A stretch of DNA of 63,923 nucleotides, counting the filler, from an uncultured Methanosarcinales archaeon (GTDB lineage Archaea; Nanobdellota; Nanobdellia; Woesearchaeales; CAZXZL01), in assembly GCA_964645415.1 (NCBI GenBank). It is 4 parts of 4 records of this genome, joined end to end, with 100 filler letters (N's around TTAATTAATTAA, not from the genome) between each part and the next. Parts side by side here need not be neighbours in the genome. Positions count along the whole stretch, not along the records: positions 1 to 19,769 come from CAZXZL010000014.1; 3 more parts are not named here. One strand, written 5' to 3'. Positions 464-39,464 of the stretch are shown in pieces. Numbering within the stretch: position 1 is the stretch's first letter; each line of letters opens with the position of its first letter. The notes below the pieces were generated by a model that saw nothing but the letters and a program-made list of their open reading frames with translations, did no database searches and was not told where the DNA came from. The translations under genes were made by a program, and so were the position numbers.

Positions 464-470
464 TTTTTAA

Positions 471-1028: not shown

Positions 1029-1079
1029 TTTATATATGGAATATAATTATAATTAATAAATATTATTAATTAAAATGAT

Positions 1080-1388: not shown

Positions 1389-1425
1389 TATATAAAAGAA
1401 AGAGAAAATGATTTATAAAATATCT

Positions 1426-1974: not shown

Positions 1975-2016
1975 TATTTTATTTAAACTAATTAATTATT
2001 TAAAACTAACTAAGAT

Positions 2017-3270: not shown

Positions 3271-3279
3271 CTTTTTAAT

Positions 3280-4236
3280 TTATGTTTTTAAAAAAATCTC
3301 ATCAAGATTTGGTTCTCTAAAACTAATAACATTAGATTTTAATCCTATTGTTTTAAATTTTCGATCTAATTTCTTTCTTTTCTTCTCAGAAGGTAAAGAA
3401 AACATAATATATTTTTCATATTTCTCTAATATTTGAATTTCTTCATAGATACAAAACTTTTTTAGTTTTTTCCACTTTTCTTTTGCAAGCCATGAAAATC
3501 TTACTTCATAAATATGATTAATTTTTAACTTTTTCTTTAAACTATCTAGTTTTCCGTTAAAAAATATTTTTCCATCTTTTAAAATAATTATCCTATCAAC
3601 ATGTTCTTGAATTTCAGCAAGTAAATGTGATGTTAAAATAATTGTTTTTCCATCAGAATTCAATTTTTCTAAAAAATGCCAAAGTAGTCTTCTATTCCTA
3701 AAATCTAAACCAGTAAATGGTTCATCAAGTATGATTATTTGAGGGTCATGAAGAATAGATAGAATTATATTAAGTCTTGTTTTTTGTCCACCAGATAACT
3801 GGTCAGGTTTTTTATTTAGATCTACTTCTAATTTTAAAAGACCCATTAATTTATTTGCTCTATTTAAAGCATCTTTTTCAGTAATTCCTTCATTTAATCC
3901 AAATACTTTGATATTATCTTCTAAACTTAAATCAGGAATGAATGAATTTTCTTGAGTAATAAAACCAAAATATTCTTTACTTAACGACTTTGACTTACCA
4001 AATATTTTTATTTTCCCACCGTGTTTTCTTGAAATTACACCTGCAATTAATTTTAAAAAAGTACTTTTTCCACTCCCAGATTTACCTACAATTGCAGAAA
4101 TCTTTTTTTCTTTTATACATAAATTTATGTTCCTTAATACTTCTTCGTTTTTATAAGAAAATTTAACTTTCTTACTTGTAATAGGATGCTTTTTTTTATT
4201 TAGTTTCTTAAGTAATTTTTTAAGCTTTTTAATCAT
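3280..4236 (-). CDS. ABC transporter ATP-binding protein
   Basis: Walker A GKSGSGKST, signature LSGGQ, Walker B ILDEP, H-loop SH. Confidence 0.95.
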   Translation of the reverse strand: MIKKLKKLLKKLNKKKHPITSKKVKFSYKNEEVLRNINLCIKEKKISAIVGKSGSGKSTFLKLIAGVISRKHGGKIKIFGKSKSLSKEYFGFITQENSFIPDLSLEDNIKVFGLNEGITEKDALNRANKLMGLLKLEVDLNKKPDQLSGGQKTRLNIILSILHDPQIIILDEPFTGLDFRNRRLLWHFLEKLNSDGKTIILTSHLLAEIQEHVDRIIILKDGKIFFNGKLDSLKKKLKINHIYEVRFSWLAKEKWKKLKKFCIYEEIQILEKYEKYIMFSLPSEKKRKKLDRKFKTIGLKSNVISFREPNLDEIFLKT

Positions 4237-4353
4237 ATAATCATTAATTCAAAATATGTTATAAAGTTTTTGTGTTTTACTTAACTAGAATCAAGTTAAA
4301 ATAATAAAAGTTATTAAGAATGAAAAGTTCTCTTTAATATAAAAAAAATTAAA

Positions 4354-5868
4354 ATGAATATTGAAGAAGTTGAAATAGATAAAAGAAGTGAAGATGAAGT
4401 TTTAGATTTAATACTCGATGCTGTTAGTAGAAATAAACAAGTTCTTGTATTTGTAAACTCAAAAAGAAGTGCAGAAAAAGTAGCTGAAGATTGTGCAAAA
4501 GAATTACTCAAACAATATGATTATCCTAATTTAAAGAATAAAATATTAGAAGCACTAAATAAACCAACTAAGCAATGTAGGCGACTTGCTAAAATAATAA
4601 GAAGAGGATGTGCATTTCACCATTCTGGACTAGTTCCAAAACAAAGAAACATTATAGAAGATGCATATAAAAATGATAAAATAAAAGTTATTTGTGCAAC
4701 ACCAACACTTGCTCAAGGAGTAAATTTACCGGCATTTAGAGTAATAATTAGAGATATAAAAAGATATAGTGATAATGGAATGAGGTTTTTACCAACTTTT
4801 GAGTATCACCAAATGTCAGGGAGAGCTGGTAGAGGAGGAAAAGAAGATATTGGTGAAGCAGTAATTGTTTCAAAGAAAAATGATCCTGATAAATTATTTG
4901 AAAAATATTGCTTTGCAAGTGCTGAAGAGATATACTCTAAGCTTGCAGTTGAACCAACTTTAAGAAAATTCTTATTAAGTTTAATTGAAAGAGATATGAA
5001 TTCAAAAGAAGAAATTATGGATTTTTTTTCAGACACTTTTTATGCACATCAATTTAAAGATATAAATAAAATAGAAGAATTAATTGAAAAAATAATGAGT
5101 GAACTAATAGAGGCTAATTTTATTATAAAAACAAAAAATAAACTTAAACTGAGTCCTGTTGGAAAAAGAATAAATCAACTTTATATTGACCCATTTTCAG
5201 CAAAATACATAATAGAATCATTTGAAGAGCTAGATGGATTTAGAAAGTCAGAAAGAGTTATTTCTTTATTATATATTGCATCAAGAACTTATGAGATGAG
5301 GCCACTTCCAAGAGTTAGAAATAGTGAATGGCATGAAATTCAAGAATTTATTTATAAAAATGAAGAAATGTTGTTTGAGGAAATGGATGTTTATGATAAT
5401 GATTACGAAGAGAAAATGAAGGCAATTAAACAAACACAAATCTTTTTTGACTGGATTAATGAAAAGAAAGAAGAAGAAATGTTAGAAAAATTCAACTTAA
5501 GACCTGGACAATTATATTATAAAATAACTAATTTAGATTGGATTATATATGTGATGAGAGAGATTTCAAGAATTGTAAAAAACGATTTAACAAAAGAATT
5601 AGATGAATTAAGATTGAGAACAAAGTATGGAACAAAACAAGAACTTGTTGGATTATTAAAATTAAAAGGAATTGGAAAAATTAGAGCAAGAAAACTCTAT
5701 AATAATGGAATAAAAAAGTTTAGTGATTTTAAAGAAAAATCCAAAGTTGCTAGAAAAGTATTAGGAGATAAAATATATGAAAAGGTTTCAGGAAACAAAT
5801 TAAAAGAGTATAAATATAAAAACAAAGGAAAAACGAAAAAAAGACAATCAAAACTTTCAAATTTTTAA
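4354..5868 (+). CDS. hel308: Hel308/Ski2-like helicase, C-terminal part only (RecA2, WH, ratchet, HhH); RecA1 domain absent
   Basis: VLVFVNSKR (IV), AFHHSGL, ATPTLAQGVNLPA (V), QMSGRAGR (VI), KGIGKIRARKLY HhH. No Walker A or DEAH. Confidence 0.85.
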   Translation: MNIEEVEIDKRSEDEVLDLILDAVSRNKQVLVFVNSKRSAEKVAEDCAKELLKQYDYPNLKNKILEALNKPTKQCRRLAKIIRRGCAFHHSGLVPKQRNIIEDAYKNDKIKVICATPTLAQGVNLPAFRVIIRDIKRYSDNGMRFLPTFEYHQMSGRAGRGGKEDIGEAVIVSKKNDPDKLFEKYCFASAEEIYSKLAVEPTLRKFLLSLIERDMNSKEEIMDFFSDTFYAHQFKDINKIEELIEKIMSELIEANFIIKTKNKLKLSPVGKRINQLYIDPFSAKYIIESFEELDGFRKSERVISLLYIASRTYEMRPLPRVRNSEWHEIQEFIYKNEEMLFEEMDVYDNDYEEKMKAIKQTQIFFDWINEKKEEEMLEKFNLRPGQLYYKITNLDWIIYVMREISRIVKNDLTKELDELRLRTKYGTKQELVGLLKLKGIGKIRARKLYNNGIKKFSDFKEKSKVARKVLGDKIYEKVSGNKLKEYKYKNKGKTKKRQSKLSNF

Positions 5869-5919
5869 AAATATCTTATTTTACCTTAAATTTCTAAAAA
5901 AATTATTTTTCTATGAATT

Positions 5920-5992
5920 AGATGAAAAGCGAAGATAAATTATCGAAGATGTATTAGCGAAGACACACTTCTTTAGCATAAATACGAATACT
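5920..5992. repeat. Mosaic intergenic element copy R1
   Basis: CGAAG at 5930, 5944 and 5958 (14-bp period), then ctttagcataaatacgaatac, a variant of 63346-63365. Confidence 0.65.
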
Positions 5993-6118
5993 AAATTAAA
6001 AAAAGAGATCATTAAGATTAAAAGAAAAGAAAATAAAATTCTATGAAAATAAACTAAAAATCATTAAAAATAGATAGTTTTAAAAAAACCCAATAATCTC
6101 CAACAAGTCGGTGAAAAA

Positions 6119-6661
6119 ATGATTTATAGAATAATATATATTTTTTTGATGGGAGTTATTATTAAAAGTATAAGTACGATACGTTTTATTTCAGAAGTTA
6201 AAGGTTATAAGTTTCTTAGTATGTTTTTAATTTCTGTTGATACAATACTTTTTATCTTGATATTTAATGATATATTGTCACAAGAACTTTCAGCACCTAT
6301 TATTGCATCATTAATTGCAGGATATTTAACAGGATATAATATTGGAACTTTTATTGAAGATAAAATTGCTCTCGGTAAAGTAACAGTGAATATAAAAATA
6401 AGAGAAAGTGATTCTGAAAAGTTAAAAGAGAAATTAAAAAAGAATGGATTTATCTTCGTAGAATCTGAATATAATTACTCACATAAAGGAAAAAAGAGAT
6501 GTATATATCAAGGAATTTTACTTAGAAAAGAATTACCAAAACTTAAGAAGGTTCTAAGTGAATTAGATGTTATTGCAACAGTACAAGAAGTTAAAGAAGT
6601 TTGTGGTAAAACAGTTATTCCTTCAAAGAAATATCTGAGATATCAAAACAGAAGTGATTAG
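6119..6661 (+). CDS. DUF2179/DUF5698 (YebE-like) membrane protein
   Basis: Three N-terminal TMs, STIRFI..VKG, GYLTGYNIGTFIEDKIALG, soluble C-terminal domain. Confidence 0.7.
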   Translation: MIYRIIYIFLMGVIIKSISTIRFISEVKGYKFLSMFLISVDTILFILIFNDILSQELSAPIIASLIAGYLTGYNIGTFIEDKIALGKVTVNIKIRESDSEKLKEKLKKNGFIFVESEYNYSHKGKKRCIYQGILLRKELPKLKKVLSELDVIATVQEVKEVCGKTVIPSKKYLRYQNRSD

Positions 6662-6676
6662 AAATGTTAGTGAAAA

Positions 6677-6705
6677 GTTTGATATTCGAACAATAAATTT
6701 ATATA
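6677..6705 (+). promoter_or_regulatory. Putative Lrp-type operator (GTTTGATATTCGAAC) plus TATA box of the peroxiredoxin gene
   Basis: 15-bp imperfect palindrome at 6677-6691, 6 nt upstream of TTTATATA at 6698-6705; 14/15 identical to the site upstream of rubrerythrin. Confidence 0.6.
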
Positions 6706-6725
6706 AATCAAAACATATTATTTGA

Positions 6726-7394
6726 ATGGTGAATAAAATGGAAAATAATATGCCACTCATCGGGGAAAAAATGCCAGAAATGGAAGTAAAAACTACAAAA
6801 GGAATGAAAAATTTACCAAAAGACTACAAAGGAAAATGGTATGTTTTATTTAGTCATCCAGGGGATTTTACACCTGTATGTACAACAGAATTTGTAGCTT
6901 TCCAAAAAAGGTATGACCAGTTTAGAGAATTAAATACAGAATTAATTGGTTTGAGTATTGATCAAGTATTCAGTCATATGAAATGGGTTGAATCTATTGA
7001 AGAACATTTTGATGAAGAAATTGAGTTCCCTATTATTGCAGACGACATGGGAAAAGTTTCAAAGAAATTAGGAATGATTCATCCTGCAAAAGGAACAAAC
7101 ACAGTAAGAGCAGTATTTATAGTTGATGATGAAGGAAAATTAAGAGCTACAATTTATTATCCACAAGAAGTTGGCAGAAATGTTGATGAAATACTGAGAA
7201 CTGTAAAAGCTTTACAGACAAGTGATGAGAAAAAAGTAGCAATGCCACATAATTGGCCAAAAAATGAATTATTAGATGATAAAGTTATAATTGAACCAGC
7301 ATCAAGTGATAAAGAAAAAGAAAAGAGATACAAATCAGTAAAAGATGGAGAAATTGAATGTAAAGATTGGTGGTTTTGTTATAAAGATCTTTAA
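6726..7394 (+). CDS. Peroxiredoxin (Prx6/TDXH archaeal type)
   Basis: [24 protein letters not shown] and C-terminal CKDWWFC. Confidence 0.95.
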
Positions 7395-7416
7395 TTGATT
7401 TTTATTTTTTATTTTT

Positions 7417-8673
7417 TTATTTTTTATTAAAATCTGATTCAAATAATGTCTTTTTTATAACTTCTACATCATCTTTTAGGTACTCAAAATCTTCTTTACT
7501 AACTAAAGAATCAGTTTTAGCTTCTATTTTTGAAAGTGATACAGTTAAATCTTTGACTGCTTCTTTATTACTCTCTGCAACATTATATGATTTTTTAATT
7601 TTAGAAAGACTTTCTTTTACATTTTGAACCATTACTTCAATTTTAGACTTAGCTTTTTCATTATCGATACTTAACTTTTCTACTCTTTTCTGAACTTTTT
7701 TCATTTTATCTAATTGATTAATAACATTTTCAAAACTTTTTATCCTTTTCATTAGTTTTATGAATTCAGAAATTTTATCTTTATTTAAGCTTGCTTGAGA
7801 CTCTAATTTTTCTAATTTACTATCTAAATTAAGTATTTTAGAATTTACATCATTAAATCTTTTATCTACGTTTTCTGGTTTAAAAGTATTTACTGTATAT
7901 TTAACTGTATTAAATTCGTCTTGAAGCTTATTAATCATCCTTTCTCTTCCCATAACTGTACTTCTTAACTCTCCAACTTTTTCATTAATTGTTTGTATTT
8001 GTTCATCAATATTTGTAGATTTTTCATTAATAATATCAATTTTACCACTTATTTTACCTTGTTCTACGTCTTGATCCTCAACTTGTTCAGAAATTTCTTT
8101 TATTTTTCTACTTAATTCTTTATTTGACATTACATCAAAGAAATCTTTATCATCTTCATCATCTTCACCCTCATCTTCGTCATCTTTATTAAATATTTTA
8201 GAAATAAAACCTTTTTTCTTTTCTTCTTGCTCAAGTTCTTTAAAATCATCTTGTGTAAAAACATTTTCATCTCTATCTATTCCTTCACCTTCTTCATCTC
8301 CTCCATCATCTTCATCTTCGTCATCATTGTTTTTCTCTTCTTTTTCCTTATTCTCTTCATCACTAATTTCTTTTTTATCCTCTTTCTTTTTTTTCTTTTC
8401 TTTATTATCAGATTTACTATCTTTTTTCTTTTTTGATTTTTCTTCTTTATCTTTACTTTTAGTTTCTTTATTTGATTTAGATTCTTTATTTTTATCTTTA
8501 TTTTGTTCAATAATTTTATTTAATATTTTAGTTGGTGATGCACCTCTATCTAATGCTTTTTGAAATGTATCAGCTTTTTGAGGATTAGAATCAATAATCT
8601 TTTTCAATATTTTTTCATCATCAAATCCGCCTTTACGGGCTTTTTCAATTGTTTTTTTTACAATTCCTGCCAT
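7417..8673 (-). CDS. Hypothetical protein: small helical N-domain, K/E/D-rich linker, long coiled coil
   Basis: 418-aa ORF with heptad pattern in the C-terminal ~230 aa. Confidence 0.75.
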   Translation of the reverse strand: MAGIVKKTIEKARKGGFDDEKILKKIIDSNPQKADTFQKALDRGASPTKILNKIIEQNKDKNKESKSNKETKSKDKEEKSKKKKDSKSDNKEKKKKKEDKKEISDEENKEKEEKNNDDEDEDDGGDEEGEGIDRDENVFTQDDFKELEQEEKKKGFISKIFNKDDEDEGEDDEDDKDFFDVMSNKELSRKIKEISEQVEDQDVEQGKISGKIDIINEKSTNIDEQIQTINEKVGELRSTVMGRERMINKLQDEFNTVKYTVNTFKPENVDKRFNDVNSKILNLDSKLEKLESQASLNKDKISEFIKLMKRIKSFENVINQLDKMKKVQKRVEKLSIDNEKAKSKIEVMVQNVKESLSKIKKSYNVAESNKEAVKDLTVSLSKIEAKTDSLVSKEDFEYLKDDVEVIKKTLFESDFNKK

Positions 8674-8678
8674 TTTTA

Positions 8679-10184
8679 TTATAATTCAAAATCTAAATCA
8701 GAAAGTTCAGAATCATCATCTTCTTCTTTTTCTTTTTTTGGTTTTTTATTTTTCTTTGAAATTGATTTACCAATATTTTTTAGTTTTTCAAGATCGTTTT
8801 TTATTTTTTTATTTTTATCTTCATTTTTCTTTTTCTCTTTACTATCTTTTTTATTTTTACTATCTTCATCATTGTTTTCTTTTTCATCCTCATCTTCATC
8901 ATCAATTTGAAATTCTAATTTACCTTTTAATTCATTTAAACCATCTTCAATATCTTTTAAATCTTCTCCTTTCTTTTCTTCTGATTTATCACTTTCTTTT
9001 TTCTTATCTGAGTTTTTATTTTTCTTCTTTTTATTTTCACTTTTTTTCTTTTCTTTTTTGGACTCTTCTTTTTCATCAGTGATCTTTTGTTTATCATTAC
9101 TTTCTTCTTTATCACTAACTTCTTTTAGTTCTTTCTTTCTTTTATTTACTGATTCTTTTAAGTCATCTAAATCTTTTTCTAAGTTAGAATTCTTTTCTTT
9201 GGTTTTTTCTTTGTTATTATCAGGTGTTTTTTCACTTTTATCTTCTTTGGTTTTTTCTTCTTTTTTACTATCGTTATCTTGACTTATACTATCTAATTTT
9301 TCTTTTATATTATCCTTTTCAATTTCATCTACATCTATGGTTGTTCCAAGTTTTTCACTTAATTTTTTAACCATCTCCTTTATTTCATTAATTTCTTCAT
9401 TTTCATTATTTTTATTAGCTGTTTTCTTATTTTTTTTGTTTGATTTTTTATTGTTTTTTTTGTTCTTATCTTTACTATCTTCTTTATTAGAATTATTTTC
9501 TTGGTTATCTTTTTCTTCACTTTCTTTCTTTTTCTCAGTAATCTCATCTAACTCTTCTCTTTTTAAATCAACTTTTTTAGTTAGATCTTTTAATTTTTCT
9601 TCAATTACTGATATTTCATTTTTTAATTTAATCTTTTTAGAATATAACTTTTCTTTTTTCATATCTTTTCTTTTACTAAGTAAATTCTCTAAATCACTCA
9701 TATCAGATTGAAGTTTTGATATAATTTCTTCTCTTTCTTTTAGGATTTCATCTCGCTTTTTTATCTCTTCTTTTAATATTTTTATTTTTTCATCTTTTTC
9801 TCTATCCTTTAGTTGAATATTTGATTGAGAAAAAGACCTCATTTTACTTTCATTAATAGGATAACTACAACGACGACAATAGTTTGATTCTTTATCTATA
9901 TTAGATTGACAATTAGGACATTCTATAAATGCATTTTGAACATTTTCTTTTTGATTGTTCATAGAAGGAATATTTTGTTCTCTATTTTTTTTAAATTCCT
10001 CTTTTGGACTATTATTACTATTTTTTATTTCATTACTTTTTGGAGAATTTTCTAAAAAGTGATTATAACTATCTATGAAAGACTTATAATCATACCCAGC
10101 TTCATAAATTCTTGCTATAAGAGAAGCGATAGGAAATTTATCTGCATTTTCTTCTAGATATTCTACAATCTCGTGCTCTATCAT
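8679..10184 (-). CDS. Zinc-ribbon and coiled-coil/low-complexity protein
   Basis: CPNC...CRRC ribbon and long K/E/D/N-rich region; paralog of 10265-10672. Confidence 0.75.
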   Translation of the reverse strand: MIEHEIVEYLEENADKFPIASLIARIYEAGYDYKSFIDSYNHFLENSPKSNEIKNSNNSPKEEFKKNREQNIPSMNNQKENVQNAFIECPNCQSNIDKESNYCRRCSYPINESKMRSFSQSNIQLKDREKDEKIKILKEEIKKRDEILKEREEIISKLQSDMSDLENLLSKRKDMKKEKLYSKKIKLKNEISVIEEKLKDLTKKVDLKREELDEITEKKKESEEKDNQENNSNKEDSKDKNKKNNKKSNKKNKKTANKNNENEEINEIKEMVKKLSEKLGTTIDVDEIEKDNIKEKLDSISQDNDSKKEEKTKEDKSEKTPDNNKEKTKEKNSNLEKDLDDLKESVNKRKKELKEVSDKEESNDKQKITDEKEESKKEKKKSENKKKKNKNSDKKKESDKSEEKKGEDLKDIEDGLNELKGKLEFQIDDEDEDEKENNDEDSKNKKDSKEKKKNEDKNKKIKNDLEKLKNIGKSISKKNKKPKKEKEEDDDSELSDLDFEL

Positions 10185-10264
10185 ACCTTATTTTAGAAAA
10201 AATTTTCTTAAAAAGTTTTGTTTTCATTACTGAAATGTTACATTAGTTTATTTTTTACCAGTAG

Positions 10265-10672
10265 TTAATTTTTAGAGATTTTACCTATGTTTTTCAACTT
10301 TTGAAGGTCCTTTTCAATGTTTTTTTTATTTTTTTTTATATTTTTCAACTTATTACCACAATAAGGACATAAATTATAGTTCCTTTTTACTTTATTATTA
10401 CAATTAGGACATTTTATAGAATTATTATTTCTATCATTTTTTATTTTTTTATTTAAATTATTTTTTAGTTTTTTTGATTTATTTTTGGTAGTATTTTTTT
10501 GTTTCTTTACTTTTATATTTTCTTTCTCTTTTTTTTGCTTTAAAAAATATTTATAACTTTCAATAAAAGAACTATAATCATATCCTGCTTCATAAATTCT
10601 CATAACAATAGAAGATAATGGATAATTATCAATATTTTTTTCTAGATATTCTACAATCTCTTTTTTAATCAT
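10265..10672 (-). CDS. Zinc-ribbon protein, short paralog of 8679-10184
   Basis: Shares EIVEYLE...RIYEAGYDY.SFI.SY..FL, a CPNC...CPYC ribbon and DL.KLKNIGK. Confidence 0.75.
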   Translation of the reverse strand: MIKKEIVEYLEKNIDNYPLSSIVMRIYEAGYDYSSFIESYKYFLKQKKEKENIKVKKQKNTTKNKSKKLKNNLNKKIKNDRNNNSIKCPNCNNKVKRNYNLCPYCGNKLKNIKKNKKNIEKDLQKLKNIGKISKN

Positions 10673-10755
10673 AAATAAATATTACAAATTTTTCTTAAAA
10701 AGTTTTGTATTTATAGAATAGTGGTTAAAATAAAAAAGAAAAAAAATGAGATGTT

Positions 10756-11343
10756 TTAGTAATAATTCTCATCTCTTGGTTTAAAATATTCTGTTGGATG
10801 TGAACAAGAAGGACATTCATCTATTGGTTTTTTTCCTTCATGGATATATCCACATTTTTGACAGACCCAATAAATTTTTTCATTTTTCTCAAAGAAAGTA
10901 TCATTTTCTATCTCTTCTAATAATGTTTTGTATCTTGATTCATGATAACTTTCTGCTTTTGCAATTGATCTTAATCTTTCTGCAATGTCTTCATAACCTT
11001 CCTCTTCAGCAATTTCTGCAAAATCAGGATACATTTCTGTATGTTCGTGATTTTCACCTTCAATAGCTGCTTTTAAATTTTCTTTTGTATTTCCATGAAT
11101 TGTTGGAGCAGAAGCATCAACATCAATCTCATCCCAATCTTCATCACTATCTTCTTTTAGTTGGTTAATTAATCTAAATAACCATTTTGCATGTTGTCTT
11201 TCATGATCAGCAGTTTCTAAAAAAATCTCACTGATTTGTGGATATCCTTCTTTTTTTGCAATACTAGCATAAATTGTATATCTGTTTCTTGCTTGGCTTT
11301 CACCAATAAAAGCTTTTGTTAAATTTTGTATTGTTTCTTCCAT
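10756..11343 (-). CDS. rbr: Rubrerythrin
   Basis: AFIGESQARNRY, ExxH diiron motifs, C-terminal CQKC..CPSC rubredoxin-like domain; GGTGAT SD before ATG at 11343. Confidence 0.95.
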   Translation of the reverse strand: MEETIQNLTKAFIGESQARNRYTIYASIAKKEGYPQISEIFLETADHERQHAKWLFRLINQLKEDSDEDWDEIDVDASAPTIHGNTKENLKAAIEGENHEHTEMYPDFAEIAEEEGYEDIAERLRSIAKAESYHESRYKTLLEEIENDTFFEKNEKIYWVCQKCGYIHEGKKPIDECPSCSHPTEYFKPRDENYY

Positions 11344-11387
11344 ATATATCACCTAAAATGTTCGACAATTTTATAAATAAGTTTTAA

Positions 11388-11417
11388 TATATAAAGTATA
11401 TGGTTCGATTATCAAAC
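11388..11417 (-). promoter_or_regulatory. Putative Lrp-type operator (GTTTGATAATCGAAC on minus strand) plus TATA box of rubrerythrin; overlaps lrp codons 2-6
   Basis: Site at 11403-11417, 7 nt upstream of TTTATATA (11395-11388, minus strand). Confidence 0.6.
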
Positions 11418-11822
11418 AAAAAAATTATTGATGAATTAGTAAAAAACGGTCGAATTAGTTATGTTGATTTGGCTAAAAAATTTGATGTAAGTGAAACTGC
11501 AATAAGAAAAAGAATAAGTAAATTAGAAGAGAATGATATTATTTTAGGTTATACTGTTGAGATAGATCCTAAGAAATTAGGTTATAATGTTAATGCTTTA
11601 GTAGGATTAGATACTGAACCAGAGGACTATTTTTCAGTTATAGAGAAATTAAAAGATTTTGATGAAATTTTAAAGTTATACTCCTCTAATGGAGATCATA
11701 TGTTAATGATAGAAGCTTGGTTTAAAGATTCTAATGATTTATCTGGATTTGTAAAAAAGTTAAACAATATTTCTGGTGTTAAAAGAGTATGTCCTGCAAA
11801 TATATTAGAAAGATTAATTTAG
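11400..11822 (+). CDS. lrpA: Lrp/AsnC family regulator (archaeal LrpA-like)
   Basis: HTH ISYVDLAKKFDVSETAIRKRISKLEE; C-terminal GDHMLM..W and GVKRVCPA.ILE typical of LrpA. Confidence 0.88.
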   Translation: MVRLSNKKIIDELVKNGRISYVDLAKKFDVSETAIRKRISKLEENDIILGYTVEIDPKKLGYNVNALVGLDTEPEDYFSVIEKLKDFDEILKLYSSNGDHMLMIEAWFKDSNDLSGFVKKLNNISGVKRVCPANILERLI

Positions 11823-11866
11823 ATTTTAATAATCTCATAATTCTTAAAAAAATTATTTTTAAAAAA

Positions 11867-12012
11867 GTATTCGTGTTTAGCTAAAGGAAGTAGAAATCAA
11901 AATCATCTAAAGAAAAAAAGAAATAGAAGCTTATAAAAACAAAAACATAAATAAATAGAATTTAATTGGAACCAACGTGCTATACGAAGTATAGTGCCAT
12001 TCGTTAGAATGG
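11867..12012 (+). repeat. Mosaic intergenic element copy R2
   Basis: 11867-11886 is the exact reverse complement of 63346-63365; caaaatcatctaaa module; hairpins gtgctatac-gaa-gtatagtgc (11977-11997) and ccattc-gtta-gaatgg. Confidence 0.85.
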
Positions 12013-12037
12013 TAACAGCTTTATAAAATTTGAACAA

Positions 12038-15000
12038 TTAAAAATCAGAATCACTTTTACTAAATTTATCTAATATATCTTTTTTCTTTCTTTCAAAATA
12101 TTTCTTTAACCTATACTTTTTAGAAGTTCTTTTTAAGTTCTCATTTTTCTTTTTAAGTTTATTTAATTTTTTTCCTAAATGCTCTTTTTCATCTTTTTTC
12201 AGGATATCATCTAAATCATCTATCTTATAACCTGTTCTTTTAATAACTCTACTAGCTTCATCAAGTTTTCCATCATTAATTAAATGTTTAATCTTTAATA
12301 TTTTAACAAAAATATCAAACTCTTTATTATCATCTTCTTCCTCAGGATTAACTTCTTCCTTTTTAGATTCTTTAGAAGATTCAGATGAGTCATCATCTTT
12401 AGACTTTTCAGTCTTTTTAGAACTATCTTCATTGATTTTTTCAGATTTTTCTTTTCTCTTAGAAGATTCTAAATCTTCTTTTTTAGATTTTTCTTTAATT
12501 AATAATAATTGATTTAAATCAGATATCCTTTTTGATAGATAATTCATTCTATCTTTAGTACTTTCATTTTCATTTTCTTTAATCATATCTAAATAACTAT
12601 CACTCAAATCGATAAGTTTAGAAAATACACTTCTTGCTTCTTTTAAGTTGTCACTTTTAATTAGTTTTTCTAAGTATCTTAATCTCAAATTAAGATCAGA
12701 GAAAGCTTTATTTACTTTAGGGTCTACAACACTACCTGATTTATTGAAAACTAAATAATTATCAGCTAGTTCAAATAAAAAATAAGACCTCTTTTTAAGA
12801 CCCATTAAATACTTATAAGGATTTTCATAAAGATCAGTGATGAAAAAATAAATATTATATAAGAAAAGTGAAAAAAGAGTTAAAAATATTACAAGCATCA
12901 TAGGAACGTAATAACTAAAATATTCCGATTTAAATTGATTTAATATCATACTACTTGTTCCAACAATATTTGTTATATCATCCACTTCTTTCATTTCAGG
13001 TGGACCAAGGAAAGGCTTTGTTAAATTTTCAGGATTTTGTATATGTAAATATAATTCTTCAAAATAAGTAGTATTCTCATTAAGAGTATTATTATAAATT
13101 TGATATTCAATAAGTACTGAATCAGTATAATTTAGATTAGGTAATCTAATTATAGTACCAGAAGAACTAATGTTTTGAATTTCAGTATAATTAAAAGAAT
13201 CATATTTAGAAATAATTTCATCATAAGGAATTAAATCTATTATAAAAAAATCACTTGTTAAATTTTTACAGTTATTACTAACACTTAATTTTACCATATT
13301 TGAACTTTTATTTAACTCTCGATAAGAATTAATACAGTTTAAGTTTTCTTCTGTTTTAGTGAAGTTAATGCTTGTAATATTAATTTCTTCGAGATAATCT
13401 TTTAAATAACTAGAATTATAATTTAAACTTTTAAATGTATTAATCATTGAAGTATAGTTCCATTTTTCAATTAAACTAGGTGGAGGCGGAGAAGAGATTG
13501 GACCAGTAGATTCATCACCACCACCTCCACCTGAAGGAGAAGGATAAGTTTTTTCAGAAATATCAATTATACCATAGCCTGTTCCATTCTCTAAAGAAGT
13601 TGAATTAATCTCAAGATATTGATCATCGGAAGAAGATATTAATTTTGGAGAAAAAGTCATCGATTCATTAGGACTTAAATTATAAATTAAAATAGAATTA
13701 TCTTCTTTCTCCATTTTTTTTATAGGAATAAGTTTTTCATTTTCGAGATATAGATAATTCAAAGTTAAATTACCGGAAGAATTAAAATCAAATATTAACT
13801 CTGATGAATTTGAATTCATAGGTAGACTAAATTTACATTTTTCAAAATTTTCCTGATATGAAATAGAACAATTTAGTTTTTCCGTTTGATTATCCTTTAA
13901 AAGAGAAATTGTCCCATTTTCACTCCCCTCATATTCATAAAAAATATTTAATTCTGAATTATTAACTAAATAATCATAAGTAAAATTAATAAAAAAACTT
14001 GTATCATTTTTCCACATAGAAGTAATATTTTTTGAATGATCCTCTCTAGATAAATTGATATAATTCTCATCAATCTCAGAAAAATTAGAACTATCTAAAA
14101 ATTCTTTTTCTAAAGAAGAATTATAAAATTCAGGTAAGATGATTTCCTCGATTCTTAAATTAGAAGAATTATAAAAATCTAATGTGATATTAGATTGATT
14201 CCGAGGAATAATATTTCGAATACTAAAATCAGTTATGAATTCTTGATTTAAATCTACATCTTTACTTAAAGATTCTATATCTAAAATTTCATTAGAAACG
14301 TTAAAAGAGATATTTTCAGAATAATTTATTCCTTGGTCTGAATAAAAACCAATTGTGAAATTTTTAAAACCACTTATTAAATGTTCAACAGTTAAATTAA
14401 TTACTTTACTTTCATTAGATTTAATATTAAATCCATGATTAGAAACATTATTAAAAATAGTTTTACTATGGTTATTATAATTTTTAATGTAAATATCATT
14501 CAAATCAAAAGGTTTATCATTAGAAATATTAATAGAAACTAAATCAAAATCATACAAATATGATTTTTCTGGATAATCAAAAGAAACAGAGAGATTATTT
14601 TCAACAGTCATAAAAGTTAAATTATGATAAGAAGATCCTCCAAACTCAGATGATGAATTTAATAAAATATTATGAACTTCATCAGTGGTATTTTCAAAGT
14701 TAAATGTTGAATTAAATATATCTTCTCCCTCTAAAAAATCTTTTTCTATACGATCATTAAATATATTAGTATTTTCAGTGGAATTGATAGATGAAAAATT
14801 CAAAGAACTATTAAAAGAAATAGATAAATTTTCTAAATTTGAAGGATGTAAATTTGTAAAATTAATAAAAAGTGATTCGTTATTAAATTCATTTACATAA
14901 CTATTATGTTCTGTTTCAATAATTTCTCCAATATTAGTTACAACTATTTGTTTACTATCTTCAAAACCTAAAACACGACAAAAATTTGAACTTCTACCAC

Positions 15001-17695
15001 CATATGTTAAATTGAGTAAAAAATTGAATTCTCTTGGTTCATCTCCTTCATTTAAGTCATTACCTATCTCTAATTCATGACTTTCAGGTTCAATTAGTTC
15101 TTGATCGGTAATTAACCTAATCTCTCTTTCACCAATAAGAGGATTCTCTTCATCTAAATTTCGTACAGTACAAGTCACATTAAGTTCATCATCCATTTTA
15201 CCAGTTTCATTACTGGTCATAATAATTTCTAACTCTTCAGGGTCATCTGTTGGAACATAATTCTCTTGTAAAGTTGAATAAGCGGATATCATTTTACCTT
15301 GTTCATGAGGGTAATCACAAGTATATTTTTGTGGATAATGTTCAGAATAGATAGGATTACAATATAAATCACCTTCTGGACCTAAATCAAATAATCTAAC
15401 TCCTAAAATATAAAACTCAGGTTCTCTAAAAACACCATAAGCTTTCCAAGCTGATTCTAAAAGAGTATAATAATATTCAAAATCACAATCATTTTCACTA
15501 CAATAATAAAAGGATGAATTTAATCCGTCATATACATAATCACTATGGTCTTCTTCTATGTGTACTGAAACAGAAGTAAGACCTAATAAATCAAAAGGAG
15601 TATTATAATCATTATCAATTAATTCAGAAGAAACTTCATCAATCCAATTTAGATAAAACTTATCACCAGTTTTCTCATATAAATAATTTAAGGAATAAAG
15701 TAGTTTTCCTTGATTTTTTTCACTACAATTAAAATCATTATTAAATAAATTACAATCACTCCATTCTTGATTCAACAATATCTCTGCATCTTTTAATAAA
15801 CGATTATCATTCGTTTTAGAATAAGTTTTTAAGTAACCTAAAGAAAGAGAAGAAGCACGATAAACCCCATCTTTGATAAATTCAAGAAAAGGATCTTCAC
15901 TATAAAGAGAACATTCATAATTATTTAAATTAGGATCACATGTAGAAAACCAAGGATTCAAATCTTGAGAAACAAGATTAGACAATACATCTACAAAAGA
16001 TTCATCAATATTATTCAAATTATTAAGTCCTGACAAATATTGACCTTGCATAAATTCATATCTACAATTAAAACTAGCATCTTCACTAAAAGGAGAACAA
16101 AAGTTATTAGGATTATAATGTCCTATTTCATAAAGAATATCTCTTGCTTGTGATTCTAAATGGACAGATTGTTTAAAATAACCATATTCAGGAAAGTTAA
16201 TATTACCATCAGAAAAATATATTTCTACAAAATTACTTCTATCAAGATAATCTTCAGGGATATCAAAAACACCATCATCATTTAATTCATAACTTTCAAA
16301 TTCATCTTCACCAAAATCTCTTATATTTATTTTAGGTTCATTAATTTCACCAGAAAACTTAATTGAAATGTTAGCATTATTTCTAGGATAAATACCACTA
16401 GATGAAAAATCAAAAAAACCTCTCTCAACATTTTCAATATGATAGGTTAATGAGTTAAAAATTCTAATCTGATAATTTTGAACTTCTGGATTATTACAAG
16501 AATAATTATCTTGATTATGACTACATGAAGATTCAAATTCATTAAATAAATCAAACATCTTACGATATACTTTATATTCAAAAGGATCATCAAACTCTCG
16601 AAAATTAATATAATTAGAAGAGATATAATTTAATGAATCAATTAACATTAATTGTTTTGAAAGGTAATCTCTTTTTTCACAATCAGAACACTCATTAAGT
16701 AATTCTTTTAACATTTTAAAAGAGTCATATAATAAATTTTCTTCAATAAACTTATTTGCCTTAAAAAAACCTCTAACTAATTCAGGATGTGGTTCTTCAA
16801 TAGAAATATAATCAATTAAGCCTTTAACAATATCAAGATAAGATTCATTTAAAGTATTTAAATAAGATTTAGAATAACCTTGAATTAATAATCCAATATC
16901 TTCACTCGTACCACAAGAATAATCACCATCAAATATATCACAAGAACTTGGTCCAGTGTTAGAAAAGTTAATAGCATATTCTTTAATAGTTTTATTTCTA
17001 TTAAATTTATAAGAGTCCCATAATTCTCTTAAAATTATACCTTGTCTCAAAGAACCACTATATTCTCTATTATCACCAATAGAAGAATCATCAGTAATAT
17101 CTCCACAACTGAAATCAGGTGGACTACAAGTTGGATTAACAGTACTATCAGACCAATTTGAATCAATTAATTTTTTTAATTTTTCATCATAGCCTTCAGA
17201 AGGATAAAAATGATTTAATTTAGAAAATCTATTTATTTCATATGCTTGAAAATGTTCATAACCACACTCAAAACTATTATTAAATGGTTCACAATAAACA
17301 CTGTTTGAATCATTTAAAACGTATTTATTTAAATGTTCCAAATAAAAAGACTCATCTCTTACAACATCTATTTTAAAATAACCAAACTTAGGAAAAAAAG
17401 TTTCATTTCCTTTATTGAATCTTAGTTTGTATGTTCCAGGAAGGTCGATATATTCTTCATTAAAAGAAAAGGTTTCATTTGAGCTTATTTCAGAATAAAA
17501 AATATCATAAGAAGGAGAAATTAATTCGGCTTTCAAACTATCAAAATCACCATCAACAATAACACTACCATTAATCTCATTATTAACAGTTATTCTATCA
17601 TTAATTAATGGTGATCTAATAAATGATTCGCTTAAAACATTTGGGGCAAATAGCAAAAATATTGCTATAAAAAATACTACTGTTTTTAAATTCAT
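12038..17695 (-). CDS. Giant (1885 aa) membrane-anchored surface protein
   Basis: Signal peptide, two tandem Cys-rich helical modules, beta-rich region with many N-x-S/T sequons, PSGGGG..PPPP linker, single TM (YYVPMMLVIFLTLFSLFLYNIYFFI), ~260-aa charged tail. Confidence 0.85.
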   Translation of the reverse strand: MNLKTVVFFIAIFLLFAPNVLSESFIRSPLINDRITVNNEINGSVIVDGDFDSLKAELISPSYDIFYSEISSNETFSFNEEYIDLPGTYKLRFNKGNETFFPKFGYFKIDVVRDESFYLEHLNKYVLNDSNSVYCEPFNNSFECGYEHFQAYEINRFSKLNHFYPSEGYDEKLKKLIDSNWSDSTVNPTCSPPDFSCGDITDDSSIGDNREYSGSLRQGIILRELWDSYKFNRNKTIKEYAINFSNTGPSSCDIFDGDYSCGTSEDIGLLIQGYSKSYLNTLNESYLDIVKGLIDYISIEEPHPELVRGFFKANKFIEENLLYDSFKMLKELLNECSDCEKRDYLSKQLMLIDSLNYISSNYINFREFDDPFEYKVYRKMFDLFNEFESSCSHNQDNYSCNNPEVQNYQIRIFNSLTYHIENVERGFFDFSSSGIYPRNNANISIKFSGEINEPKINIRDFGEDEFESYELNDDGVFDIPEDYLDRSNFVEIYFSDGNINFPEYGYFKQSVHLESQARDILYEIGHYNPNNFCSPFSEDASFNCRYEFMQGQYLSGLNNLNNIDESFVDVLSNLVSQDLNPWFSTCDPNLNNYECSLYSEDPFLEFIKDGVYRASSLSLGYLKTYSKTNDNRLLKDAEILLNQEWSDCNLFNNDFNCSEKNQGKLLYSLNYLYEKTGDKFYLNWIDEVSSELIDNDYNTPFDLLGLTSVSVHIEEDHSDYVYDGLNSSFYYCSENDCDFEYYYTLLESAWKAYGVFREPEFYILGVRLFDLGPEGDLYCNPIYSEHYPQKYTCDYPHEQGKMISAYSTLQENYVPTDDPEELEIIMTSNETGKMDDELNVTCTVRNLDEENPLIGEREIRLITDQELIEPESHELEIGNDLNEGDEPREFNFLLNLTYGGRSSNFCRVLGFEDSKQIVVTNIGEIIETEHNSYVNEFNNESLFINFTNLHPSNLENLSISFNSSLNFSSINSTENTNIFNDRIEKDFLEGEDIFNSTFNFENTTDEVHNILLNSSSEFGGSSYHNLTFMTVENNLSVSFDYPEKSYLYDFDLVSINISNDKPFDLNDIYIKNYNNHSKTIFNNVSNHGFNIKSNESKVINLTVEHLISGFKNFTIGFYSDQGINYSENISFNVSNEILDIESLSKDVDLNQEFITDFSIRNIIPRNQSNITLDFYNSSNLRIEEIILPEFYNSSLEKEFLDSSNFSEIDENYINLSREDHSKNITSMWKNDTSFFINFTYDYLVNNSELNIFYEYEGSENGTISLLKDNQTEKLNCSISYQENFEKCKFSLPMNSNSSELIFDFNSSGNLTLNYLYLENEKLIPIKKMEKEDNSILIYNLSPNESMTFSPKLISSSDDQYLEINSTSLENGTGYGIIDISEKTYPSPSGGGGGDESTGPISSPPPPSLIEKWNYTSMINTFKSLNYNSSYLKDYLEEINITSINFTKTEENLNCINSYRELNKSSNMVKLSVSNNCKNLTSDFFIIDLIPYDEIISKYDSFNYTEIQNISSSGTIIRLPNLNYTDSVLIEYQIYNNTLNENTTYFEELYLHIQNPENLTKPFLGPPEMKEVDDITNIVGTSSMILNQFKSEYFSYYVPMMLVIFLTLFSLFLYNIYFFITDLYENPYKYLMGLKKRSYFLFELADNYLVFNKSGSVVDPKVNKAFSDLNLRLRYLEKLIKSDNLKEARSVFSKLIDLSDSYLDMIKENENESTKDRMNYLSKRISDLNQLLLIKEKSKKEDLESSKRKEKSEKINEDSSKKTEKSKDDDSSESSKESKKEEVNPEEEDDNKEFDIFVKILKIKHLINDGKLDEASRVIKRTGYKIDDLDDILKKDEKEHLGKKLNKLKKKNENLKRTSKKYRLKKYFERKKKDILDKFSKSDSDF

Positions 17696-19698
17696 TTTAA
17701 TCCTAATTTTTCTTGAAGGCTCTGAATATAAATTTCGGTCATTTTAAAACGACCTTCTTTTAGTTTATTATTAGCAAGATTATAATCTAACTCTAAATCA
17801 CTAGTATCTTGATTAGAATCTTCTTTAGATTTAATTTCTTCTTTAATAACTTTAAGTTGGGAAGTAAATTTATTATATTTTTCTAAATCTTCTTCACTTA
17901 ATTTATGAGGATTGTGTAAAGGGGGTCTAAAGTGGATGAACCATGGTTTACCATCATTATATTGAGGATTTTGAACCATAGCAACTCCAACACCCTGACG
18001 AGTAATACGTTTTGCATACATCCCACCGTACTTTTCTTCAGCTTTTTTAATATCATTCATATTTTTAGTGTTAAGTTGAACTTCTGTTAAAACATTTCCG
18101 CCAATCTCACCTTTAAAATCACTACTTACCTGACTAGCCATTAATAAACCAATACCCCACTTACGAAATTCTCTAGCTCCTCTAATTAAACCAGCATAAC
18201 CATCACCAGAACAAGAAGAATCTAAGAGACGATGCACCTCATCAAAAACACATAAAAGTTTAAGTTCAGGATCTTCTTCCCAATTTTTTTCAAATATTTT
18301 TTCAATAATTTTAGCAACTGCTTGATCATAATCTTGTATGTTAAGATTAGCAAGGTTAAAAACAGTAATTTCACCAGGATTTAAGTATTCTTCAAAATTG
18401 AGTTCAAAGTTAGCATCTTCTGGAGTAAAAATTAAACCTTTATAACTACGAGCATCTTCTTTTTTTAGATTGAATTTTGGATAATATTTGAAAATATTTT
18501 TATCTTTTAAAGAACTTAAAAAGCCAGTCCATTGACTAGTAGGGTCAAATACAACAACAGGAATCTTCTCATTTAATGCTTCTTCAACAATAATACTAGC
18601 ACTAACAGATTTACCACTACCTGTACTACCAGCAACAAGACCGTGGGTAGTTAAATCACGAGCAGCAAGATAAGCCTTATGCCTTGTACCAGCTAATTTA
18701 CCAACTTCAAGCATTGTTGTATTCATATTTTTATTTGGTAAATCTTTTAGATCAGGAGTAATATATCTTTGTTTTTGTTGTTTATATTTTTTATACTTAT
18801 TATAACCCTTAATAGTTACAATTAAAAGTGGAGAACCTATTAAAAAAATCAAAATTATTCTAAAATAAATAGTATCAAAAAAGCTTTGTGATAAAGTAAA
18901 AACAGAAGTAGACTGATAAACAGTTTCATTTACAATTAAATTTGTAACAAGATTATATCTTCCTAAATTAACCTCACTACCATCCTCTTCATTTAAAAAA
19001 GTCTCTCTATCAAGTGTCTTTTGTCTCATATCTCTAAAACTTGATGTTGCAGTAATGTTATAAGAATCTATATAGAAAACCTCATCAGATTCTAAATGTG
19101 TAGCAAGTAACTCTATTTTTACATTTTCAAAGTCAATAGGAATATAAAAATCAAAACTAAGGAAATAAATTAATTCATCACCTAAGAAGACTTCAGAAGA
19201 GTATATCTCATTTGATAATGATACAGAACGATCTCTTTCAAAAATTATTTCTAAGGAGATAGGTAGCTCAACAGAATCATGTTCTGTTTCGATGTAGATA
19301 CTACCATATAAGTTTTCTTCTTGTAAATCTTCACTTACATTAAATGTAACAGGAAGAAGATGCATACCAGAATTTTCAATTGTTAAATTTTCAGATTCAA
19401 ATTCAACAACAGATTCGAACTCTTCAGAGAAATTTAATCGATAATCAATTGAATGATTTTGATATTGTCTTAGTTCAACAGGTATTGTTACAGAGTGTCC
19501 TCTGATAATATTAAGACTACTTGAGATACTAGCATCAAACCCTTCACAATCCTCAGGACAACTATAATAATCTAAATTATCATAACAAATTCCGTCTCCA
19601 CACTCACCTTCAAAAGAATAAACTGAAATTGAAAAAAAGAATAATGTGAGAACTAAAAAAATAAATACAAAATTCCTTATAAATTTTATATTAACCAT
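17692..19698 (-). CDS. Membrane-anchored HerA/FtsK-superfamily (DUF87-like) ATPase with extracellular domain
   Basis: Signal peptide from MVNIKF (ATG 19698), CGDGIC..CPEDC motif, Ig-like region, TM, then HGLVAGSTGSGKS, VVFDP, VFDEVHRL, REFRKWGIGLLMASQ. Overlaps the start of the next gene. Confidence 0.88.
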   Translation of the reverse strand: MVNIKFIRNFVFIFLVLTLFFFSISVYSFEGECGDGICYDNLDYYSCPEDCEGFDASISSSLNIIRGHSVTIPVELRQYQNHSIDYRLNFSEEFESVVEFESENLTIENSGMHLLPVTFNVSEDLQEENLYGSIYIETEHDSVELPISLEIIFERDRSVSLSNEIYSSEVFLGDELIYFLSFDFYIPIDFENVKIELLATHLESDEVFYIDSYNITATSSFRDMRQKTLDRETFLNEEDGSEVNLGRYNLVTNLIVNETVYQSTSVFTLSQSFFDTIYFRIILIFLIGSPLLIVTIKGYNKYKKYKQQKQRYITPDLKDLPNKNMNTTMLEVGKLAGTRHKAYLAARDLTTHGLVAGSTGSGKSVSASIIVEEALNEKIPVVVFDPTSQWTGFLSSLKDKNIFKYYPKFNLKKEDARSYKGLIFTPEDANFELNFEEYLNPGEITVFNLANLNIQDYDQAVAKIIEKIFEKNWEEDPELKLLCVFDEVHRLLDSSCSGDGYAGLIRGAREFRKWGIGLLMASQVSSDFKGEIGGNVLTEVQLNTKNMNDIKKAEEKYGGMYAKRITRQGVGVAMVQNPQYNDGKPWFIHFRPPLHNPHKLSEEDLEKYNKFTSQLKVIKEEIKSKEDSNQDTSDLELDYNLANNKLKEGRFKMTEIYIQSLQEKLGLK

Positions 19699-19769
19699 TC
19701 TTATTAAGTACTTGTTTAAGTTCATCTATATATATTTCGGTCATCTTGAAACGACCTTCTTTTAATTTA
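19691..19769 (-). CDS. C-terminal fragment of a second, paralogous HerA-like ATPase (cut by gap)
   Basis: Manual translation KLKEGRFKMTEIYIDELKQVLNKNG* versus KLKEGRFKMTEIYIQSLQEKLGLK* of the downstream gene; overlaps that gene's ATG. Confidence 0.8.
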
Positions 19770-19869
19770 NNNNNNNNNNNNNNNNNNNNNNNNNNNNNNN
19801 NNNNNNNNNNNNNTTAATTAATTAANNNNNNNNNNNNNNNNNNNNNNNNNNNNNNNNNNNNNNNNNNNN
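19770..19869. other. Assembly gap with artificial TTAATTAATTAA spacer
   Basis: N-run, 12-mer, N-run, 100 nt total; same design at 39365-39464 and 58708-58807. Confidence 0.95.
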
Positions 19870-39300: not shown

Positions 39301-39464
39301 TACTCTTAAAATCTCTGATTTTATTCACTTTTAAATTTCTAATTTAACAGTTCTAAACTTTAGTNNNNNNNNNNNNNNNNNNNNNNNNNNNNNNNNNNNN
39401 NNNNNNNNTTAATTAATTAANNNNNNNNNNNNNNNNNNNNNNNNNNNNNNNNNNNNNNNNNNNN

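Follow-up and report, generated by a model that had tools for sequence, protein, structure and literature searches.

The locus described here lies in a window of 63,923 nucleotides (nt; the whole stretch of DNA analysed, filler included) from the genome of an uncultured Methanosarcinales archaeon (assembly GCA_964645415.1; Woesearchaeales in GTDB), and carries the gene of a 677-amino-acid (aa) receptor-like ATPase followed by that of a 1885-aa surface protein. It is almost certainly the 3' part of a SPEARE-type cluster of DPANN archaea, with the gene order giant adhesin-ATPase (cut off by the contig end), short ATPase, double-toroid protein and coiled-coil protein. The ATPase pair is thus a further case of a published arrangement whose function is unsolved. 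A previous sequence-only reading had taken the system to be uncharacterised, a view that has to be given up, since the locus matches the SPEARE arrangement of two papers (Hamm 2019, PMC6642349; Reva 2023, PMC10266531), with about 50% identity to the ATPase pair of Nanohaloarchaea SG9. The role in host contact that it had proposed is supported, as are its topology and superfamily assignment. The window joins four contigs by N spacers at 19770-19869, 39365-39464 and 58708-58807, the first contig (C14) covering 1-19769, and genes to the right of 19869 are therefore not neighbours of the locus.

Host attachment and exploitation by DPANN archaea are an open question for which SPEARE proteins are a main candidate, and two conflicting models have been published, DNA degradation and a secretion straw. 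The locus reveals no new system but sharpens the parts list, by a near-obligate coiled-coil partner and a double-toroid protein of glycosidase fold, while the 677-aa ATPase represents the giant in minimal form, at a size that allows expression. Because homologues of the parts (SVXNc_0298-0301) occur in a cultivated symbiont, the SPEARE models are directly testable. The toroid partner, the coiled-coil partner and the lineage-wise clustering of the ATPases were not found in the literature searched; the supplementary tables of Hamm 2019 may list neighbours. No mention of either partner or of such clustering was found in the accessible text of PMC9563170 and 10.1101/2023.02.24.529834, and the accessible text of the "Giant genes" preprint (10.1101/2023.11.21.568195) has no passage on the SPEARE-type ATPase family.

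Relation to SPEARE proteins

The name SPEARE was given to giant proteins of SG9 and Candidatus (Ca.) Nha. antarcticus in a paper that also lists a 655-aa version in SG9 and notes similar intracellular domains in Woesearchaeota and Aenigmarchaeota (Hamm 2019, PMC6642349). The SPEARE tail has been described as a VirB4/TraG-like ATPase plus a coiled coil, with a second ATPase gene downstream, as in the pairs SVXNc_0300/0299 and BNXNv_0298/0297 (Reva 2023, PMC10266531). The window ATPase shares with these proteins a signal peptide, an immunoglobulin (Ig)-like ectodomain, one transmembrane (TM) helix, a cytosolic HerA/VirB4-like ATPase, a helical tail and the tandem ATPase gene. Its ATPase domain is 51% identical to that of the SG9 giant, 49% to that of the short SG9 neighbour and 51% to the B1-Br10 pair, and coiled-coil and toroid genes are neighbours in the SG9, SVXNc and BNXNv genomes as well. 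Unlike the SPEARE loci of Nanohaloarchaeota, however, the window comes from a lineage whose closest named relatives are Woesearchaeota/Nanoarchaeia, its toroid gene follows the ATPase gene and overlaps it where theirs is placed upstream and divergently, its coiled-coil gene is displaced by 3.4 kb, and the giant is not assembled in the window. The features of the locus are collected in Table 1.

Table 1. Features of the SPEARE-type locus, in positions of the window
Feature	Position	Strand	Evidence
Short receptor-like SPEARE-family ATPase, 677 aa	17692..19725	-	Open reading frame (ORF), Pfam, alignment, AlphaFold model, fold search
Signal-peptide-like N-terminus (aa 10-37)	19615..19698	-	Hydropathy; found in short paralogues
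Four-Cys knot CGDGIC..CPEDC (aa 42-60)	19546..19602	-	Motif, alignment
Two Ig-like beta-sandwich domains (aa ~63-279)	18889..19539	-	AlphaFold model
Single TM helix (aa 285-303), poorly conserved	18817..18873	-	Hydropathy
HerA/VirB4/FtsK-superfamily ATPase domain; Walker A, Walker B, Arg-finger motif and sensor Gln intact	17899..18774	-	
Conserved C-terminal three-helix tail (..KLKEGxFKM.EIY)	17704..17895	-	Alignment, model
Type I surface protein, 1885 aa: signal peptide, 2 x (beta-sandwich + toroid), stalk, TM helix, 265-aa charged cytoplasmic tail	12038..17695	-	
Toroid 1, Cys-stapled (alpha/alpha)6, six-hairpin-glycosidase-like (aa 114-421)	16433..17356	-	GH76 4v1r, Z 19.0 (model 92-403)
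Toroid 2 (aa 514-814)	15254..16156	-	GH76 6shm, Z 21.4, root-mean-square deviation (rmsd) 3.5, 267 aligned
Stalk rich in N-glycosylation sequons (51 of 70 in aa 901-1600)	12926..15208	-	
TM helix of the 1885-aa protein (aa 1601-1619)	12839..12895	-	Hydropathy
Soluble coiled-coil partner, 418 aa, conserved IGELRS core	7417..8673	-	Neighbour clustering, profile
3' end (25 codons and stop) of the paralogous ATPase gene upstream, truncated where the contig ends	19691..19769	-	

The short receptor-like ATPase

The motifs first read in the 677-aa protein (CGDGIC..CPEDC, GSTGSGKS, DEVHR and R.FRKWG..ASQ) are all present as stated, with GSTGSGKS at residues 366-373, FDEVHR at 494-499, REFRKWG at 518-524 and MASQ at 529-532. 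The hydropathy profile shows an N-terminal signal-like peak at aa 19-37 and one TM segment at aa 285-303, and the gene likely starts at Met10 (19698), overlapping the upstream stop codon by 8 nt. The AlphaFold model, based on a 28-sequence alignment (predicted local distance difference test score, pLDDT, 86.7), has a pair of beta-sandwiches ahead of a long TM helix, which is followed by a RecA-like core, and ends in three helices. Together with the hydropathy it supports the proposed type I topology of signal peptide, Ig ectodomain, one TM helix and cytoplasmic ATPase, the signal peptides of both surface proteins of the window being judged from hydropathy and conservation alone. The fold of the ectodomain resembles tandem sandwiches of the RbmA/WxLIP type (Z 10.8-12.9).

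Assignment to the HerA/VirB4/FtsK superfamily is borne out by a Pfam match to the DUF87/HerA central domain (E 8e-13) and by the fold search, in which the ATPase core matches HerA (4d2i) with Z 26.0 (rmsd 2.9, 257 residues aligned), followed by DndH (24.1), VirB4 (22.4), TrwB (18.1) and FtsK (17.2). HerA of S. solfataricus is thus the closest fold and has the same Walker A and B motifs and an Arg-finger motif of the REGRK type. Unlike HerA, the window ATPase is membrane-anchored with an ectodomain, has SQV in place of SQRP, and has a helical insertion about 80 residues shorter, with 124 residues between the Walker A Lys and the Walker B Glu compared to 202. No nuclease partner, as in HerA-NurA or Sir2-HerA, was seen, nor does any nuclease family occur among the 30 commonest neighbour clusters of related loci, as inspected by eye. 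The HAS barrel of canonical HerA, which had been reported missing, is indeed found neither among the Pfam matches nor in the model; PF09378 matches in this genome solely on contig C20, where a separate 676-aa HerA-like gene (C20:12430-14457) has a weak HAS-barrel match.

The relation to HerA, VirB4, CedB and FtsK was judged by these fold scores and by hidden Markov model scores. The best NCBIfam model is CedD with 35.5 bits against a cut-off of 600, HerA models reach 22-32 bits against 800-970, no family-level score was obtained for CedD, HerA, TraC or TraD, and no CedB model is listed at E <= 0.01. VirB6/TrbL (PF04610) and the VirB4 N-domain (PF03135) were not found in the genome (79 contigs, 100% marker completeness, which is not proof of absence; VirB2 and VirB11 were not searched for), and no polytopic CedA/VirB6-like gene lies in the locus or among the common neighbours, a survey made with no CedA-specific profile. 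On these scores and searches the locus does not appear to map onto the Ced system or a conjugation system. Like CedB/CedD and VirB4/VirD4, membrane-associated ATPases of the FtsK-HerA superfamily at cell-cell contacts, the window ATPase comes as two paralogues; unlike them, it has an extracellular Ig domain at its N-terminus.

Conservation and spread of the ATPase family

Conservation was scored over 182 full ATPase domains, including that of the window, from 189 ORFs hit in loci L031-L189, some of which are duplicates. REFRKWG, which aligns with REGRK[FY]G of HerA, is invariant in 182 of 182 domains, and the Walker A motif GxTGxGK[ST], DE-x-H-R and SQ are kept in all. The four-Cys motif is found in 13/13 short, 10/16 giant and 80/109 single juxtamembrane modules scored.

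A survey of 301 genomes of the same order (completeness >= 80%) found the ATPase family in 81, by single sequence and by profile alike. Among the best 70 of 479 confirmed stretches in genome contigs are Woesearchaeota, Nanoarchaeota, Aenigmatarchaeota, Nanohaloarchaea (SG9, at 51%), Pacearchaeota, Parvarchaeota and Hydrothermarchaeum records, and some of these 70 were labelled Methanosarcinales by their depositors. The Hydrothermarchaeum profundi record, named outside DPANN, encodes a SPEARE-type giant ATPase of >3,699 aa with a coiled-coil neighbour (L085:2-11101); no toroid gene was found in that genome. Furthermore, in 47 single-ATPase loci, many from Aenigmatarchaeota, the toroid protein is replaced by another conserved surface protein with a single TM pass and up to 2,779 aa (for example L104:8128-16467, L083:12945-21092 and L058:7417-15207), which the toroid profile does not match.

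In seven tandem pairs the two ATPase cores are 68-93% identical, the ectodomains 11-28% and the TM segments 0-35%. A quick tree of 78 domains (the window, the tandem copies minus eight duplicate loci, and the first 40 single copies) needs 12 changes between first and second copies compared to 13.2 with shuffled labels and does not separate them into two clades, so that giant and short ATPases group by lineage. A fixed specialisation of giant and short subunits is unsupported by this tree. Eight of 17 tandem pairs have a short copy that resembles its own giant more than it does any other short copy, and the pattern of pair similarity would fit repeated duplication as well as episodic gene conversion.

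The upstream paralogue and the giant

The sequence-only reading had a paralogous ATPase ending immediately upstream of the short one. The paralogue is real, although just 25 of its codons lie on C14 before the contig ends. The differences between this fragment and the short gene are mostly synonymous, and one Logan contig reproduces 18592-19765 with 0 differences and then reads on through 255 nt of a diverged copy (54 differences) of 17764-18018; together these rule out a misassembly of the short gene. The Logan matches come from three DNA runs of one soda-lake study, one of them possibly the source of this assembly, and no RNA run was listed with a match. In addition, Logan contigs of all three runs contain a paralogous ATPase segment corresponding to 18131-18462, with 43 differences in 322 nt and about twice the local depth, which probably represents two more nearly identical copies that were collapsed during assembly, or else a co-varying relative.

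By analogy with its relatives, the fragment is probably the C-terminus of a giant SPEARE-type protein. Across 61 genomes of the same order, the module corresponding to aa 41-674 ends open frames of 15,809, 11,830, 9,862, 9,175, 8,155 and 4,455 aa, most of which are directly followed by a paralogue of 670-730 aa, an arrangement also present in SG9 and B1-Br10. Giant frames of the nearest relatives span 2,756-15,809 aa, and 26 of 28 upstream genes in relatives are long and open-ended at the edge of the locus, the two complete ones having 1677 and 2675 aa (some loci are duplicated). The label "giant", first attached to the downstream 1885-aa protein, is thus misplaced, as in relatives it is the gene upstream of the short ATPase that is giant. 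A search of the rest of the assembly for the giant gave just one Ig region of 20-30% identity, on contig C9; tblastn found no other close ATPase copy in this assembly, and a metagenome scan gave nothing above 62% identity. The genome also has a 3,866-codon, Cys-rich (99 Cys) surface-protein frame with assembly gaps nearby (C2:31626-43223), for which tblastn indicated no relation to the SPEARE cluster.

The double-toroid surface protein

The ATPase and 1885-aa ORFs overlap by ATGA, as had been described. Translational coupling of the two genes is not conserved, however: relatives show gaps of 2-131 nt, inversions and divergent placement, and adjacency alone is kept. Hydropathy peaks at aa 3-21 and 1601-1619, and in the modelled region (aa 23-830, pLDDT 85.2) a unit of beta-sandwich and helical toroid occurs twice. 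The toroids resemble GH76 (Z 21.4), AGE/cellobiose epimerase (20.9), the GH105-type YteR of GH88/105 (20.6), the SSV19 tail (7xdi, 19.5) and the thioester domain of complement C3 (17.1), and also GH127, all within Z 17-21; the top matches are tied, so that no function can be read from the fold. Neither Pfam nor NCBIfam has a match for the protein, the ESM Atlas gives scores under 0.8 only, and a single-sequence scan of genome contigs with the toroid region confirmed none of 538 candidates, so that profiles were needed. Weak sequence matches of the toroids to six-hairpin families (E 0.003-0.006) were obtained, with PF07944 in 10 of 20 homologues (E <= 0.001), and the toroid profile collected 103 representatives at 50% clustering. 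Two toroids are present in 57 of 65 proteins with full repeats, and a C-terminal TM helix in 53 of 57 members longer than 1000 aa.

The catalytic Asp-Asp dyad of GH76 sits at the start of an inner helix. Over 122 repeats, conserved polar positions are E147/E547 (0.74), R217/R613 (0.77) and four Gln, each beginning a helix (0.83-0.87); no more than 7% of repeats have DD at any of these four Gln positions. The toroids are therefore not GH76 enzymes, and they further differ from six-hairpin glycosidases by their tandem arrangement on a long stalk and their Cys-stapled loops. From their positions, the conserved Glu, Arg and Gln would line the toroid pocket, and the toroid may be either a lectin or an enzyme with another chemistry than GH76. 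The 1885-aa protein looks like an overlooked sugar-binding part of the SPEARE cluster.

The toroid family occurs in at least 11 of the 301 order genomes, a diverged member in genome G033 having come up in another search only. The ATPase is present in ten of these 11, and the 11th has its toroid gene next to the coiled-coil gene where a contig ends. Of the nine genomes whose ATPases are closest, eight encode the toroid protein, compared to two of the other 72, counts in which kin are not independent. The toroid gene is within the flanks of 10/20 tandem loci and 2/129 single loci, and of the locus in 4/5 further genomes tested. The toroid gene of SG9 has its start some 26 kb away from the stop codon of the giant, which would place it divergently, just upstream of the 8,553-aa giant. 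Two-toroid homologues are also SVXNc_0301, which adjoins the giant SVXNc_0300 of the cultivated species, and a BNXNv protein labelled YyaL. The closest named homologues are labelled Woesearchaeota and Nanoarchaeia, which suggests where the organism of the window belongs. SVXNc_0301 is listed as "hypothetical" and transcribed in a table of Reva 2023 (PMC10266531) and is named in no main text found. All four genes SVXNc_0298-0301 are transcribed in this table; a subunit ratio based on it (giant 13,131 and short 562 "RPKM", reads per kilobase per million mapped reads) was dropped, as the values seem to scale with gene length, judging by the RNA polymerase genes.

The coiled-coil partner

The neighbourhood survey that had been suggested was carried out, and clustering of the ATPase neighbours gave one dominant family across related loci, a coiled-coil protein that includes the window ORF at 7417-8673. 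The earlier parts list was right in the ATPase and the 1885-aa protein, and had missed this gene, the toroid domains and the probable upstream giant. Of 120 loci with 2 kb or more of downstream sequence, 107 contain the coiled-coil gene, and its distance from the ATPase stop is no more than 300 nt in 91 of 118. It occurs in 96 of the 301 order genomes and in 77 of the 81 with the ATPase, four having the ATPase without it. Pfam and NCBIfam give sub-threshold generic coiled-coil matches only, and the ESM Atlas returns unnamed Nanobdellota/Woesearchaeota clusters. SVXNc_0298 is annotated as a coiled-coil protein, and its position, together with the situation in SG9, suggests that it belongs to this family. 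A small three-helix module common to some giants and coiled-coil proteins has no match in the proteins of the window.

Possible mechanisms

The sequence-only reading left adhesion, secretion and uptake side by side as tasks of a trans-envelope ATPase. Of these, an adhesion-coupled membrane motor that organises host contact is preferred, if tentatively and at somewhat less than even chances, and import and secretion are rated lower. What this reading adds to the observed anatomy, intact motifs, folds, gene linkage and lineage-wise clustering is an oligomer, its binding partners, a substrate and a direction of action, each of them proposed. The giant Ig-repeat ectodomain would tether the cell to its host, as has been proposed in print, and the two toroids, by their fold, would bind host surface glycans and may trim them. 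In rings of the HerA/FtsK superfamily the Arg-finger acts in trans. Since this motif is invariant and the paralogues are alike in the ATPase domain only, giant and short subunits would assemble by way of their ATPase domains, forming rings of HerA type beneath the membrane. ATP hydrolysis may then act on the cytoplasmic coiled-coil partner and organise, tighten or remodel the contact site, and no polymer would be pumped through a pore of the subunits' own TM helices. Such a motor fits better than a channel, because Ced and type IV secretion system (T4SS) channel genes were not found in the locus, or by PF04610 in the genome, and the TM segment is unconserved. Sequence features that would likewise argue against a self-made channel are the single hydrophobic TM helix per subunit, the lack of a match to VirB6/TrbL or the VirB4 N-domain in the genome, the change of SQRP to SQV and the shortened Walker A-B spacing.

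Several observations weigh against this reading. The ATPase fold is closest to polymer translocases (HerA, DndH and VirB4), and most studied members of the HerA/FtsK superfamily pump DNA or protein. The assembly of this genome lacks the giant gene, C14 stopping after 25 codons of the upstream paralogue. Seventy of the 72 more distant ATPase-positive genomes lack a match to the toroid protein, which is therefore not a core part, and 19 of the 96 coiled-coil-positive genomes have no ATPase match at the thresholds used. Nine of 17 tandem pairs have a short ATPase with more similarity to the short copy of another genome than to its own giant, so homogenisation would be episodic. Furthermore, 220 of the 301 order genomes have no ATPase match and the cultivated Ca. 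Nanohalobium constans has no giant (PMC10266531); the giant system is thus not needed for host attachment in general, and the SPEARE-type system is optional. All four mechanisms weighed here are hypotheses.

The best-surviving alternative, though rather unlikely, is a polymer importer, in which nucleic acid of the host, or some other polymer, is drawn into the symbiont at the contact site by a membrane-anchored ring, in the manner of CedB/CedD, after the toroids have loosened the glycan coat of the host. HerA as best fold match and CedD as best, if far sub-threshold, NCBIfam model would agree with it. CedD, which combines a TM helix, an N-terminal domain and a HerA-like ATPase, is needed for DNA import in a system that also needs the VirB6-like CedA (PMC11868833), and uptake of host DNA as a nucleotide source has been proposed for SPEARE (PMC6642349). 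The SSV19 tailspike has a GH76-like domain, the toroid match 7xdi, and SSV19 virions cleave host N-glycan, which was credited to the mannanase-like tailspike by speculation (PMC12042106); this may serve as a precedent, not as proof, for a role of the toroids. Import is less readily reconciled with the lack of a polytopic CedA/VirB6-like channel in the locus and of PF04610 in the genome, with the lost SQRP arginine, shortened insertion and unconserved TM helix, and with the lack of a nuclease family among the commonest neighbours.

A bolder proposal, which we consider unlikely, sees in the four genes a trans-envelope machine for feeding that is specific to DPANN and has no relation to T4SS or Ced. 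Its ring would combine giant and short single-pass ATPases, whose compatibility recurrent gene conversion would maintain, and the dedicated coiled coil would brace it. The stalk-mounted double toroid, as a new glycosidase or lyase family with a Glu/Arg/Gln pocket, would strip the host S-layer glycan, after which the ring would draw host macromolecules in or drive membrane contact, with no separate channel protein.

A type IV-like secretion straw, in which VirB4/TraG-like ATPases export effectors through the giant into the host, is a published proposal (PMC10266531) that appears less likely than import. The fold matches to VirB4 and TrwB agree with it. The tandem ATPases recall VirB4 plus VirD4, but they are close paralogues and not such a pair, the short protein begins with a signal peptide and extracellular Ig domains instead of a VirB4 N-domain, neither PF03135 nor VirB6 was found in the genome, and a chain of Ig domains has no lumen. 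Least probable of all is a housekeeping or non-host role, in which ring and coiled coil would help to export, anchor, cluster or shed giants or mediate contacts between symbionts: the ectodomain does vary from about 300 to >15,000 aa beside a constant cytoplasmic unit, and ectodomain and cytoplasmic parts of the Ca. Nha. antarcticus protein were found in different gel size fractions (PMC6642349), but many genomes carry just versions of 700-1,400 aa, which need no special export help, and the glycosidase-fold partner would point to a foreign glycan surface.

Other features around the locus

At 11861-12015 lies one copy of an intergenic repeat, about 130-155 bp long, that is dispersed through the genome. 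It has 53 matches on 33 contigs of this genome, 32 of them within 400 nt of a contig end, and contains a hairpin with a 7-bp stem and a 3-nt loop, resembling repetitive extragenic palindromic (REP) elements or miniature inverted-repeat transposable elements (MITE). This repeat probably explains much of the fragmentation of the assembly. A sigma-70 promoter scan gave a chance-level result (29 compared to 31.2), with a model that is unsuited to archaea. Directly upstream of the coiled-coil gene (5-nt gap) are two Zn-ribbon ORFs on the minus strand (8679-10184 and 10265-10672) sharing an N-terminal domain (39% identity over 107 aa), which have no homologues among the neighbour ORFs of related loci. 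Genes for a peroxiredoxin, a rubrerythrin and an Lrp/AsnC regulator are located among and beside the cluster genes, at 6726-7394, 10756-11352 and 11400-11822.

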